A DNA stretch of 64,000 bases from Candidatus Sumerlaeaceae bacterium (GCA_019695055.1 JAIBAT010000150.1:35543-99542), one strand, 5' to 3'; positions 22,447-28,381 are shown, counted from the stretch's first letter. Notes: a model not told the origin generated them from the sequence alone. Translations and numbers: made by a program.

Positions 22447-23649
22447 TCAGGGCTGCTCGAGCACCATGGATATTCCCTGGCCGACGCCAATGCACATGGT
22501 GCAAAGGGCGCGCTTTGCGCCGGTGCGCTGGAGCTGGTGGGCGGCAGTGGTAACGAGGCGGGCACCGCTCATGCCGAGGGGATGGCCGAGGGCGATGGCG
22601 CCACCGCGGGGATTGAGACGGGCGTCGTCGTCGGCAAGGCCAAGCTCGCGGGTGCAGGCAAGAGCCTGCGCGGCGAAGGCTTCGTTGAATTCGAGGATCT
22701 GTAAATCGTCGAGGGAAAGGCCGAGCCGCGCGAGGAGCTTGCGGGTGGCGGGAACAGGGCCGATGCCCATGATGCGCGGCGGCACGCCAGCGGCGGCGGC
22801 CCCGACGATGCGGGCCATGGGTTTGAGGTCAAACCTTTTCACGGCTTCTTCACCGGCCACGAGCACGGCGGCGGCGCCGTCGTTGACGCCGGACGCATTG
22901 CCAGCAGTGATGGTGCCTGCTGGGTGGACGATGGGTTTCAGCGAGGCGAGTTTGTCGAGGCTTGTGGCGCGGGGGTGCTCGTCGACACTGACGATGATAG
23001 GATCGCCCTTGCGCTGGGAAATGCTGACGGGTGCGATTTCCTCGGCGAGGCGGCCATCGGCCTGGGCGGCGGAGGCTTTGGACTGGCTCCAGAGGGCGAA
23101 TTTGTCCTGGTCTTCGCGACTGATATTGCGCTCCTTCGCGAGATTCTCGGCGGTCTCAGGCATGGCGTCGGTGCCGTAGGCAGACTTCATTTTGTCGTTC
23201 ACGAAGCGCCAGCCGATGGTGGTGTCGTAGACTTCGGCCTTGCGGCTGAAGGCTTCGGTGGCCTTGCCCATGACAAAGGGAGCGCGGGACATGCTCTCGA
23301 CGCCGCCGGCGATGACGACTTCGGTCTCGCCGGCCGCAATAGCGCGGGCGGCGGTGGCGACGGCGTCCATGCCTGAACCGCATAGACGGTTGACTGTCAC
23401 ACCAGATATCTCGACAGGCAGGCCGGCCAGCAGAGCGGCCATGCGGGCGACGTTGCGGTTGTCCTCGCCGGCCTGGTTGGCGCAGCCGAGGATCACATCG
23501 TCGATGGCGGCGTGGTCGAGGTTCGCTGAGCGGGCGAGGATCACCCGGATGACGTGGGCGGCAAGGTCATCGGGCCGAACGGCCGCAAGGCTGCCTCCGT
23601 AGCGCCCCACCGGGGTGCGGATTGCATCACAGATATAAACTGGTTTCAT
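22447..23649 (-). CDS. 3-oxoadipyl-CoA / acetyl-CoA C-acyltransferase (thiolase, PcaF/PaaJ-like)
   Basis: 400 aa. The N-terminus MKPVYICDAIRTPVGRYGG is typical of beta-ketoadipyl-CoA thiolases. The thiolase active-site region NRLCGSGMDAV and the C-terminal GGAIALGHPLGMSGARL are present. Confidence 0.85.
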   Translation of the reverse strand: MKPVYICDAIRTPVGRYGGSLAAVRPDDLAAHVIRVILARSANLDHAAIDDVILGCANQAGEDNRNVARMAALLAGLPVEISGVTVNRLCGSGMDAVATAARAIAAGETEVVIAGGVESMSRAPFVMGKATEAFSRKAEVYDTTIGWRFVNDKMKSAYGTDAMPETAENLAKERNISREDQDKFALWSQSKASAAQADGRLAEEIAPVSISQRKGDPIIVSVDEHPRATSLDKLASLKPIVHPAGTITAGNASGVNDGAAAVLVAGEEAVKRFDLKPMARIVGAAAAGVPPRIMGIGPVPATRKLLARLGLSLDDLQILEFNEAFAAQALACTRELGLADDDARLNPRGGAIALGHPLGMSGARLVTTAAHQLQRTGAKRALCTMCIGVGQGISMVLEQP

Positions 23650-23670
23650 GAAATCCTCAATTGCTGGAAT

Positions 23671-26473: not shown

Positions 26474-28075
26474 CTAGTGCTCCTCGCCGTGAATTTCCAT
26501 GAGTTTGTTCTCAATGTGCCTGAGTTCGCCCTCGAAAAAGAACTCGTCGGTATCGAACGGCTCGAGGAAATCCACGCGGTTCTCTGTGGCGTTCCACTTG
26601 GCGAGAAAGACTCGGTCCATCCATTTCATGTTTCGGGCCTCGGTGAACTTGAGGGCGAAGGTCTTCTGGCCGCCAACGATGCAGGTGCCGAGGATCGACA
26701 TTTTTCCGGCGGAGGTGGTCATGGAAATGTAGCGCGACGGGCGGTTGATGGAGGGAAGCGAGCGGAAAATGAGGTTTGAAATTTGCTCCACGTCGGCGAG
26801 TGGCGCGGTGAAGTAGTGATGCTCGCCTGTGGGGCGGGCGCAGTACATGGAATGGAAGCCGATGCCGAGGGGGGCAAGAATGTTCGCGAGATCGATCCAG
26901 TTTTGGGCCGATTTCTCGATGTTCACGGTGCCGTCGTCGTTGCAGAAGAGGCTGATGTGGTTCATCATGGGGCTCTGGCTGCGGACGACCACGCCGTGGC
27001 GCTGGAGGCGACGGATAGCTGCGATGGTGCTGGGATTCAGCAACTCGCGAGGCGTGGAGAAGTGGGCCATCCAGGCGAGTTGTACGCCGGCCACGGTGAC
27101 TTTGTCGAAAACGGCGAGCATCTTGTCGTAGGAATGGGACAGGATCATCTCGGGCTGGTAAGTCAGCGCGCGGGAGGCAAGGCGGACGGTACGGATGTGG
27201 AGAAGCGACCGGTCTTCGAGGATGGGGGTCACATAATTGGAGAGGCGCGTTGGGGGCATGTAGCCTGCGTCGCCACCGGTAATGAGGAGGTCGGTAACCT
27301 CGGTATGCTGGCGGAGGTAGGCGTGAACCTGATCCACGTCGCGCTGGAGAAACATGTCCTCGTCCCCGCGCACCTGGGCATGTCGGAAACAGTAGGTGCA
27401 AAACGCGAAACAGTTTTGGGTCGTCTTGTCGAAAATGAGCTGGCACTGCGGATACTTGTGTTGGCTGCCGTCGAGGACGTCGATGCCGCCGTCCTGGTTT
27501 TCGAGCCAGGGCTTGTTGAGAAGCTGGTGACCGTCGTGGGGGTTTGTTTTCTCGGTGTATTCGGTGACGATGCGCTCGCGCTCGGCGTCGGTGGTGGCAG
27601 CTTCGTAGGCTTTCACGACGTCCGCGTTGATCATTTTCGGCTGGGGAAAGACGAGTTGGAAGATGGAATCCTTTTCGTAGGAGTTCCAATTGATGCAGTT
27701 AAGGGCATGGCGGGTGGCGAGGAAGCGGTAAACCTCAATAAAGAGTTCGCGCTCCTTGATGTGGCCGATGGAGATGCCGTGGCTTTCCAGGATTTGAACC
27801 ACTTCCCGGAATCCCTCGAGACCGGTGTATTGCGTGCGCCCCTGAAACAGGAAGGGCATGGTTTCCATGAAACCGGAATGCCGGGGATAGGTGGCGTGGA
27901 GGCGACTCAGGAGGCCGGCCGGGAGCAGGTTTTCGGTGTGGATGATTTCCCGGGTTTCGTCGTCGTAGCCGTACCGGTCCATCATTCGGTCGATATCCGC
28001 ACGGGTGACCGTGCTGCCAATGGGATCGGTCCGGTCGGAAACCGGTGATTCTACGACTCCGGGTGTGCTCATGGG
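26474..28075 (-). CDS. KamA-family radical-SAM amino acid 2,3-aminomutase (lysine/glutamate 2,3-aminomutase-like) with an N-terminal extension
   Basis: The CxxxCxxC radical-SAM cluster motif is embedded in the KamA signature CFAFCTYCFRHAQV. Downstream there is a TGGDAGYMPP-like element. The start is uncertain: MSTPG at about 28075 versus the ORF-table start at 28198. Confidence 0.7.
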   Translation of the reverse strand, partial: PMSTPGVVESPVSDRTDPIGSTVTRADIDRMMDRYGYDDETREIIHTENLLPAGLLSRLHATYPRHSGFMETMPFLFQGRTQYTGLEGFREVVQILESHGISIGHIKERELFIEVYRFLATRHALNCINWNSYEKDSIFQLVFPQPKMINADVVKAYEAATTDAERERIVTEYTEKTNPHDGHQLLNKPWLENQDGGIDVLDGSQHKYPQCQLIFDKTTQNCFAFCTYCFRHAQVRGDEDMFLQRDVDQVHAYLRQHTEVTDLLITGGDAGYMPPTRLSNYVTPILEDRSLLHIRTVRLASRALTYQPEMILSHSYDKMLAVFDKVTVAGVQLAWMAHFSTPRELLNPSTIAAIRRLQRHGVVVRSQSPMMNHISLFCNDDGTVNIEKSAQNWIDLANILAPLGIGFHSMYCARPTGEHHYFTAPLADVEQISNLIFRSLPSINRPSRYISMTTSAGKMSILGTCIVGGQKTFALKFTEARNMKWMDRVFLAKWNATENRVDFLEPFDTDEFFFEGELRHIENKLMEIHGEEH

Positions 28076-28381
28076 TCCCCCCAAGCTAAGAGTATTCTCC
28101 AGCTTCACCCGGCTGGCCGCTGCACCGGCGGCACCCTTTAACCAGAAGCGAAGTCTGGCACTGCTGCACCTGTTAAACTGTACTGCAAAGGCTGGCAAAA
28201 AGTCTCAGGGGCAATGCCAAAAAAAATAAGCGGACCCATATATCCGTAATTGGCGGTCCGGAAAGGTCTGCGGGGCATGATTTTGCGAGGGAGGGTGTAT
28301 GGGAATTCTTTCCTTGAACCCCGGCGCGGGTGGTCCCCAGCGTTGGGAATCATTAATTCGCACTGAGGAGCGCCGTAACGC

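Follow-up and report, generated by a model that had tools for sequence, protein, structure and literature searches.

Gene layout of the locus

We analyzed a 64,000-nucleotide stretch of a Candidatus Sumerlaeaceae bacterium genome (GCA_019695055.1, JAIBAT010000150.1:35543-99542; hereafter, the window), in which five closely packed open reading frames (ORFs) occupy positions 22447-28072 of the minus strand. In the direction of transcription, they encode a KamA-like radical S-adenosylmethionine (SAM) protein, the two subunits of a 3-oxoacid CoA-transferase, a class-III aminotransferase, and a thiolase. An initial annotation, made from the DNA alone, had proposed five packed minus-strand genes of these families; the ORFs are present, and Pfam and NCBIfam models confirmed the families, with a qualification for the radical-SAM protein given below. 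We regard the five genes as very probably constituting a conserved catabolic operon of the beta-amino-acid type, and their comparison with related loci suggests that it probably serves L-2-aminoadipate, an intermediate common to lysine and pipecolate degradation. The five genes are as follows.

26474-28072, minus strand: divergent KamA-like radical-SAM/pyridoxal 5'-phosphate (PLP) protein, 532 aa; proposed L-2-aminoadipate 2,3-aminomutase
25726-26436, minus strand: 3-oxoacid CoA-transferase subunit A (PcaI/ScoA family), with Pfam, NCBIfam, and Protein Data Bank (PDB) matches
25031-25729, minus strand: 3-oxoacid CoA-transferase subunit B (PcaJ/ScoB family), GTG start, with Pfam and NCBIfam matches
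23671-25008, minus strand: class-III aminotransferase, similar to glutamate-1-semialdehyde aminomutase; proposed 3-aminoadipate:2-oxoacid transaminase
22447-23649, minus strand: 3-oxoadipyl-CoA thiolase (PcaF/PaaJ type), matched by NCBIfam equivalog models

The successive intergenic distances are 37, −4, 22, and 21 nt, the GTG start of subunit B overlapping the stop codon of subunit A by 4 nt; the last three agree with the initial annotation, whereas the first had been given as 38 bp. The radical-SAM gene could start at ATG 28072 (532 aa) or at an alternative TTG at 28198 (574 aa), the latter being the start chosen initially. The ATG is the most likely start, because the corresponding NCBI protein of the same metagenome-assembled genome (MAG; P0001, 100% identical and labelled "hypothetical protein") is 532 aa long, most homologues are approximately 530-560 aa, and a G-rich stretch (GGGGGG) lies upstream of this codon.

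Conservation of the five-gene block

A database search for the radical-SAM family returned 1378 matches, the best 120 of which were all 65-78% identical to the window protein. A genome scan located relatives in 436 species-level genomes of the Sumerlaeota, Eisenbacteria, Krumholzibacteriia, Verrucomicrobiota, Planctomycetota, Actinomycetota, Gemmatimonadota, Fibrobacterota, Bacteroidota, SAR324, Desulfuromonadales, Alpha- and Betaproteobacteria, and many marine Gammaproteobacteria (Colwellia, Shewanella, Photobacterium, Pseudoalteromonas, Motiliproteus, and Gallaecimonas). We investigated synteny in a sample of 86 loci using tblastn as well as gene calls with Pfam. Four ORF-call clusters (9, 14, 15, and 22) were antisense artefacts in high-GC loci, and the counts below hence come from tblastn.

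All five genes in identical order and orientation: 64 of 86 loci
Colinear up to the contig end: 8 of 86 loci
Four genes, adjacent thiolase absent: 4 of 86 loci
Radical-SAM gene apart from the rest (Colwellia/Litorilituus): 9 of 86 loci
Radical-SAM, aminotransferase, L-piperideine-6-carboxylate (P6C) dehydrogenase, and Sacchrp_dh genes (L077): 1 of 86 loci

The neighbourhood that the initial annotation had described in a single genome is colinear in 64 loci from many phyla. So many independent loci repeat the five genes in order that chance falls far short of explaining the arrangement. The window proteins were 56-83% identical to their counterparts in Sumerlaeota, Verrucomicrobiota, Planctomycetota, Gammaproteobacteria, Desulfuromonadales, and Bacteroidota, among other groups. 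The median was 65-75% for all five proteins in more than 12 phyla, a shared level of divergence that points to inheritance and horizontal transfer of the operon as a unit. In addition, 49 of the first 83 loci have a divergent LysR gene upstream of the operon, at the position of the divergent intergenic region of the window.

Ten Colwellia/Litorilituus loci (L009, L011, L015, L018, L019, L030, L031, L035, L036, and L040) have the radical-SAM gene with a LysR neighbour. One of them, L040, belongs to the eight contig-end loci and contains no downstream operon gene in its remaining 2 kb. The genes for CoA-transferase subunit B, the aminotransferase, and the thiolase lie approximately 7 kb from the radical-SAM gene on the opposite strand in L035, and those for the aminotransferase and thiolase lie approximately 7 kb away, before the locus end, in L018. 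The intervening genes in Colwellia/Litorilituus encode an AraC regulator, an MFS transporter, cytochrome b561, and YceI. In L086, a small 4Fe-4S ferredoxin gene (15743-16051) directly follows the thiolase gene and an Rnf cluster lies upstream; this ferredoxin could be the reductant of the radical-SAM cluster there.

The radical-SAM protein

The radical-SAM protein carries the motif CxxxCxxC (as CFAFCTYCFR). The initial annotation had assigned it to the KamA family, an assignment that held at the level of fold and motifs but not at that of curated hidden Markov models (HMMs), since the protein failed every cut-off; its score on TIGR00238, for example, was 66.1 bits (cut-off 199.2). By HMM criteria, it is a distant relative of the KamA family rather than a member. 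The specific functions considered were likewise rejected. On the model of EpmB, which acts in beta-lysylation of elongation factor P and had been singled out initially as the identity to be distinguished, the protein scored 43.3 bits against a cut-off of 369.3, and the gene context is a catabolic operon in the 64 colinear loci. It scored 59.3 bits against 525 on the model of bona fide lysine 2,3-aminomutase (LAM; TIGR03820) and 51.6 bits against 650 on that of glutamate 2,3-aminomutase (Eam; TIGR04368), and it also failed the NCBIfam equivalog cut-off for arginine aminomutase.

We compared the family with LAM of Clostridium subterminale, using a reference sequence identical to chain A of PDB entry 2A5H over all 416 residues. 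A profile of 25 family members matched this structure with 97.5% probability in hhalign. When the PDB was searched with the plain sequence or with a profile, the alignment with LAM covered only residues 200-373 of the radical-SAM protein; the region of the PLP lysine was reached through profile-profile comparison, a structure model, and bridging sequences, the last drawn from a search of a 1.84-billion-protein representative set and aligned with MAFFT. The AlphaFold2 (AF2) model (predicted local distance difference test score, 72.9; predicted template modelling score, 0.78) retrieved 2A5H as the top match in a Foldseek search of the PDB (E = 5e-11, target-normalised template modelling score 0.62, approximately 450 aligned columns), followed by RlmN at E = 9e-4. 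The predicted structure thus has a LAM-like overall fold.

Within this alignment, C221, C225, and C228 are invariant and fall in the columns of LAM C125, C129, and C132. The invariant G266-G267-D268 aligns with the SAM-binding GGD motif, the nearly invariant R230 falls in the column of R134, which binds the alpha-carboxylate in LAM, and the invariant K457 falls in that of the PLP lysine K337. We therefore predict K457 as the PLP lysine and R230 as the carboxylate-binding Arg. PLP/SAM-dependent 2,3-aminomutase chemistry is plausible for this protein, because the CxxxCxxC and GGD motifs, the Arg, and the PLP lysine are invariant or nearly so.

The two aspartates that bind the epsilon-ammonium group of lysine in LAM are not kept. 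The equivalent of LAM D330 is S450, and D293 is replaced as well, suggesting that the enzyme is not a lysine aminomutase. Homologues (e.g., P0016, P0017, and P0026) are labelled "L-lysine 2,3-aminomutase" by JGI/UniRef and "hypothetical protein" by NCBI; the former label is probably a misannotation, because both lysine-binding aspartates are missing. Glutamate 2,3-aminomutase reportedly (in work by Ruzicka and Frey from 2007) has analogous Asp-to-Lys and Asp-to-Asn replacements at the lysine-binding aspartates. An acidic side chain on the substrate is a reasonable expectation for the window enzyme.

Several features weigh against reading this protein as an aminomutase for an acidic amino acid. 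Its identity to LAM is just 16-19%, a Pfam scan returned no family at E ≤ 1e-3, including Radical_SAM and LAM, and the scores on the NCBIfam models of the KamA family (43-71 bits) were all below the cut-offs of 199-650. The confidence of the AF2 model is low around the cluster loop (residues 201-243). The residue equivalent to D293 depends on the aligner, being A412 in hhalign and the adjacent R413 in MAFFT, and Arg also occurs at this position in uncharacterised sister families, so that it is perhaps uninformative on the substrate of this enzyme.

The same divergence leaves some room for a protein that is no 2,3-aminomutase at all and instead performs another radical reaction, dependent on PLP or not, on a lysine-derived metabolite whose product is handled by the other four enzymes. 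A family-specific N-terminal domain of approximately 100 residues would fit such a change of function. So would the absence of the Zn-binding cysteines found in the C-terminal part of LAM (C375, C377, and C380), which have no counterpart in the family alignment: cysteines are invariant or nearly so at four positions only (C210, C221, C225, and C228), all outside the C-terminal part. We consider this rather improbable, since the LAM fold is kept along with the SAM motifs, the PLP lysine, and the Arg that binds the carboxylate, and since a pathway that continues with a transaminase, a 3-oxoacid CoA-transferase, and a thiolase needs a 3-amino acid, the product of a 2,3-aminomutase.

Clustering at 50% identity leaves little more than a single full-length representative of the radical-SAM family (P0121, 971 bits), and the relative that follows scores 410 bits. 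Beyond it lie uncharacterised KamA-like sister proteins of approximately 410-480 aa (P0131-P0153 and many others; 1766 representatives at E ≤ 1e-3 and 502 at E ≤ 1e-10). These keep the CxxxCxxC, GGD, and PLP-lysine motifs, share an RDTG motif at the position of LAM D293, and score 96-124 bits on TIGR00238 against the cut-off of 199. They may be further aminomutases with other substrates.

Transaminase, CoA-transferase, and thiolase

The aminotransferase matched Pfam Aminotran_3 with 202 bits. Identity with HemL, which the initial annotation had kept in view for this gene, was rejected, as the protein scored 327.5 bits on TIGR00713 (cut-off 527.3) and 329.9 bits on NF000818 (cut-off 398). Its best PDB match was 6K8H (415 bits), followed by ForI (6SSD; 362 bits), with HemL at most at 233 bits; the beta-transaminases 2YKU, 4AO9, and 6IZ9 scored 187-192 bits (2YKU, 192; 4AO9, 187). 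The nearest solved relative, 6K8H, is an omega-transaminase of Sphaerobacter thermophilus that acts on beta- and gamma-amino acids (PMC10589169).

Both CoA-transferase subunits can be assigned by their models to the PcaIJ/ScoAB subfamily. Subunit A scored 234.5 bits on Pfam CoA_trans and 353.6 bits on TIGR02429 (cut-off 128.5), with ScoA 3CDK as the best PDB match (232 bits), and subunit B scored 143.2 bits on CoA_trans and 292.3 bits on TIGR02428 (cut-off 243.55). The thiolase passed both cut-offs for 3-oxoadipyl-CoA thiolase, with 688 bits on NF006551 (cut-off 605) and 670.5 bits on TIGR02430 (cut-off 597), and matched 8GQH (546 bits) and the beta-ketoadipyl-CoA thiolase 6PCA (537 bits) in the PDB. 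These scores assign it to PcaF/PaaJ at the equivalog level, in agreement with the PcaF type named in the initial annotation.

Neighbouring genes and the substrate

We clustered all ORFs flanking the operon loci and found that the sole recurrent metabolic neighbours were enzymes producing L-2-aminoadipate. A gene for an aldehyde dehydrogenase, assigned as P6C dehydrogenase (P6C-DH), lies within 10 kb of the operon in seven loci (L020, L048, L062, L063, L065, L074, and L077) from SAR324, Desulfuromonadales, Desulfuromusa, Motiliproteus, and delta- and alphaproteobacterial MAGs; the two members scanned with the P6C-DH equivalog NF050084 (L065 and L077; cut-off 730) scored 795 and 817.5 bits. Four of these loci (L062, L065, L074, and L077) also encode a protein of the saccharopine dehydrogenase family (Sacchrp_dh) of approximately 365 aa, the best solved relative of which is PH1688/3ABI, of equal length. 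We take PH1688 to be an L-lysine dehydrogenase. In L065, the genes follow one another on one strand in the order P6C-DH, Sacchrp_dh, radical-SAM, CoA-transferase A and B, aminotransferase, and thiolase; in L074, P6C-DH precedes and Sacchrp_dh follows the same five genes; and in L077, the order is radical-SAM, aminotransferase, P6C-DH, and Sacchrp_dh. Furthermore, the L-pipecolate oxidase model weakly matches an AmaA-like gene of L048 (458.6 bits against a cut-off of 600), and genes for a polar-amino-acid ABC transporter with a Lys/Arg/Orn-like binding protein are present in L020, L063, and L065.

Considered alongside a thiolase of the PcaF type and a transferase of the PcaIJ type, these neighbours single out 2-aminoadipate as the probable substrate of the operon. 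The preference for this substrate in the initial annotation thereby gained support from the P6C-DH, lysine-dehydrogenase-like, and (weakly) AmaA-like neighbours in other genomes. The computational checks suggested in that annotation all turned out in favour of its interpretation.

Other observations speak against this choice. The genes producing 2-aminoadipate adjoin the operon in just 7 of the 86 loci, and a search of the window for P6C-DH, Sacchrp_dh, and AmaA-like genes found none, so that the supply step would be encoded elsewhere in the genome or the substrate would be imported. The CoA-transferase models are at the subfamily level and the solved relatives are all of the ScoA, SCOT, or AtoD type, which makes the 3-oxoadipate and acetoacetate (ScoAB) types indistinguishable. 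Four loci (L027, L029, L073, and L075, from Rhodocyclaceae, Ramlibacter, and two actinobacterial MAGs) contain the radical-SAM, CoA-transferase A and B, and aminotransferase genes without an adjacent thiolase gene, which may be located elsewhere in these genomes.

The same reaction logic could apply to another amino acid, such as 2-aminopimelate or a neutral one (e.g., leucine to beta-leucine to beta-ketoisocaproate), and would then end in another acyl-CoA plus acetyl-CoA. The assignment of 2-aminoadipate is itself inferred, the CoA-transferase family also uses acetoacetate and other 3-oxoacids, PcaF/PaaJ-type thiolases accept several 3-oxoacyl-CoAs, and most loci have no 2-aminoadipate-producing neighbour. 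However, the thiolase scored above the 3-oxoadipyl-CoA thiolase equivalog cut-off, the recurrent metabolic neighbours all make 2-aminoadipate, and the invariant Arg at or next to the position of LAM D293 suggests an acidic side chain; we consider another amino acid unlikely.

Glutamate would satisfy the expectation of an acidic substrate, given the loss of the lysine-binding aspartates and the gain of a basic residue. It would be converted via beta-glutamate to 3-oxoglutarate, which could proceed through 3-oxoglutaryl-CoA to malonyl-CoA and acetyl-CoA, or be decarboxylated to acetoacetate and yield two acetyl-CoA through acetoacetyl-CoA, and a ScoAB-type CoA-transferase would suit acetoacetate. 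Conversely, the radical-SAM protein scored far below the Eam equivalog cut-off, the thiolase is of the PcaF type rather than an acetoacetyl-CoA thiolase, and the neighbours are P6C-DH and lysine-dehydrogenase-like genes, none being related to glutamate. We regard glutamate as quite improbable.

Other genes recur beside the operon in particular lineages. In Motiliproteus and Halopseudomonas loci (L042-L044, L046, and L066), the genes upstream of the operon include those of a thioesterase of the hotdog (4HBT) type and a BCCT-family transporter, and a 4HBT thioesterase gene occurs near the operon in nine loci. A class I/II aminotransferase gene directly follows the thiolase gene in L042-L044 and L066 (not L046), and a gene for a PreA-like protein with DHO_dh and 4Fe-4S domains lies near the operon in L042-L044 and L046 (not L066).

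Proposed pathway

On 2-aminoadipate as the substrate, the five gene products would form a continuous route. Lysine or pipecolate would supply L-2-aminoadipate through P6C. The KamA-like enzyme, with a [4Fe-4S] cluster, SAM, and PLP, would shift the amino group from C2 to C3 to form 3-aminoadipate, and the class-III beta-type transaminase would transfer this group to a 2-oxoacid, leaving 3-oxoadipate; for both steps, we infer the reaction. The PcaIJ/ScoAB-type CoA-transferase, established at the family level with 3-oxoadipate as its presumed substrate, would form 3-oxoadipyl-CoA, probably with succinyl-CoA as the donor. Finally, the PcaF-type thiolase, assigned at the equivalog level, would cleave 3-oxoadipyl-CoA into succinyl-CoA and acetyl-CoA. 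The net reaction would be 2-aminoadipate + 2-oxoacid + CoA → succinate + acetyl-CoA + amino acid. Such a route would be redox-neutral, independent of oxygen, and free of decarboxylation, and would bypass the conversions of 2-oxoadipate to glutaryl-CoA and to 2-hydroxyglutarate as well as the B12-dependent steps of lysine fermentation. Judging from gene content and context, a five-gene catabolic operon for L-2-aminoadipate is the interpretation that we favour with some confidence.

The four reaction types are all reversible in principle, and the operon could run in the biosynthetic direction, from succinyl-CoA and acetyl-CoA through 3-oxoadipate to 3-aminoadipate and perhaps on to 2-aminoadipate, with a beta-amino-acid solute or building block as the product. 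The BCCT-type osmolyte transporters adjoining the operon in the Motiliproteus and Halopseudomonas loci would fit a solute. Nevertheless, degradation is the role suggested by a compact, LysR-linked operon that adjoins P6C-DH, an AmaA-like oxidase, and genes for the uptake of amino acids, and no conserved downstream ligase, nonribosomal peptide synthetase, or acetyltransferase was found among the clustered neighbours; a biosynthetic role is highly improbable.

Relation to known systems

The degradation of 2-aminoadipate by the proposed route can be described roughly as a hybrid, in which the first step of clostridial lysine fermentation (KamA) is linked by a beta-transaminase to the lower beta-ketoadipate pathway (PcaIJF). 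The radical-SAM enzyme of the operon shares with KamA/LAM the radical-SAM plus PLP fold, the CxxxCxxC and GGD motifs, the carboxylate-binding Arg, and the PLP lysine; the low identity, the replaced D293 and D330, the missing Zn cysteines, and the extra N-terminal domain set the two apart. As in clostridial fermentation, an alpha-to-beta shift of the amino group would open a degradation that ends in thiolytic, acetyl-CoA-yielding cleavage. However, the KamDE (B12-dependent 5,6-aminomutase), Kdd, Kce, and Kal components of the clostridial kamA-kamDE-kdd-kce-kal cluster are absent from the operon of the window and from related loci, where the radical-SAM gene is followed only by the two CoA_trans genes, Aminotran_3, and thiolase. 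The operon would instead remove the beta-amino group with a transaminase and activate the resulting beta-keto acid with a CoA-transferase. Eam is likewise a KamA-type enzyme for an acidic amino acid, but it differs in gene context, and the substrate predicted here is one carbon longer.

The last two steps and their enzyme families are equal to those of the lower beta-ketoadipate pathway (PcaIJ and PcaF). In that pathway, 3-oxoadipate comes from aromatic ring cleavage, whereas here it would derive from an amino acid through a beta-amino intermediate, and genes of the pcaBCDGH type are not near the operon. The closest solved relatives of the transaminase are class-III beta-transaminases (6K8H, Mesorhizobium 2YKU, Variovorax 4AO9, and ForI 6SSD), which interconvert a 3-amino/3-oxo acid pair as would be required here. 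The characterised enzymes have beta-amino acids with aromatic or aliphatic groups, or else a pyrazole precursor, as their main substrates, whereas the substrate proposed here is 3-aminoadipate, for which we know of no described transaminase.

Known fates of 2-aminoadipate lead through 2-oxoadipate to glutaryl-CoA or, in Pseudomonas putida, from 2-oxoadipate to 2-hydroxyglutarate by HglS. The proposed route has the entry metabolite and the upstream enzymes in common with these (lysine dehydrogenase, or the pipecolate oxidase AmaA, followed by the P6C dehydrogenase AmaB), but would involve no 2-oxoadipate, oxidative decarboxylation, or oxygenase, and would yield succinyl-CoA and acetyl-CoA rather than glutaryl-CoA or 2-oxoglutarate.

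A full-text literature search (most subscription journals lying outside its scope) found no paper on 3-aminoadipate as a metabolic intermediate, on an aminoadipate aminomutase, or on this gene combination, in line with the initial annotation, which had regarded the combination as undescribed. A single match for "beta-aminoadipic" was a typographical error for alpha-aminoadipic acid. What would be new about the operon is a branch of aminomutases and the way in which known enzyme families are wired into a pathway.

Transcription unit and flanking regions

Two further features border the five genes.

22414-22435, minus strand: GC-rich 9-bp hairpin without a U-tract, starting 11 nt past the thiolase stop codon
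28073-28381, between divergent genes: 309-bp intergenic region from the radical-SAM gene to argG, presumed promoter region

From their spacing and synteny, the five genes are presumed to share a single transcript; a promoter scan of the region upstream of the operon found no match to a sigma-70-like consensus. The hairpin downstream of the thiolase gene has a minimum free energy of −17.3 kcal/mol (z = −2.68 against shuffled sequences) and is a possible, weakly indicated transcript end; terminator-like sites in the scan were not commoner than in shuffled sequence. No riboswitch or other known RNA was found upstream of the operon: an Rfam scan of the whole window at the gathering threshold returned no match, nor did a scan of 27900-28500 at E ≤ 1.

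The flanking genes, a K+ channel gene downstream (21499-22305) and the divergent argG upstream (28382-29623), are unrelated to the operon. Farther out on the plus strand, 19078-21492 encodes a secreted protein of the GHL10 family (804 aa), which carries a CarboxypepD_reg-like domain and has a long C-terminal part rich in Thr and Gly, and 29770-31929 encodes a Ser/Thr protein kinase of 719 aa, the C-terminal region of which is of the membrane/sensor type; neither bears any relation to the operon. The plus-strand GC skew is 0.13-0.19 per 2-kb window throughout 18001-30000, a 12-kb segment that includes the operon, and approximately 0 to 0.1 or negative in the rest of the 64-kb window.

Implications

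Taken as a whole, the proposal is that the operon encodes the first natural 2-aminoadipate 2,3-aminomutase, representing a new branch of the KamA superfamily that is both deeply diverged and highly conserved. Together with a 3-aminoadipate transaminase, it would constitute a new redox-neutral, O2- and B12-independent route that joins lysine and pipecolate catabolism to the lower beta-ketoadipate pathway, spread horizontally through at least 12 phyla, with 3-aminoadipate as a new natural metabolite. We incline towards this proposal by a small measure. If it is true, the route would be a third bacterial fate of 2-aminoadipate and would explain how lysine degradation is completed in organisms that have lysine dehydrogenase, or pipecolate oxidase, together with P6C dehydrogenase. 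It would also provide natural enzymes for the conversions among 2-aminoadipate, 3-aminoadipate, and 3-oxoadipate, which, to our knowledge, have so far figured only as hypothetical reactions of engineered routes to adipate and beta-amino acids. The hosts of the operon include cultivable Photobacterium, Shewanella, Colwellia, Pseudoalteromonas, and Gallaecimonas, in which the hypothesis is directly testable. For the radical-SAM family, the finding would give a function to widespread proteins now labelled "hypothetical" or, probably wrongly, "lysine 2,3-aminomutase", would widen the substrate range of radical-SAM aminomutases, and would be a pointer to the many uncharacterised KamA-like sister families.

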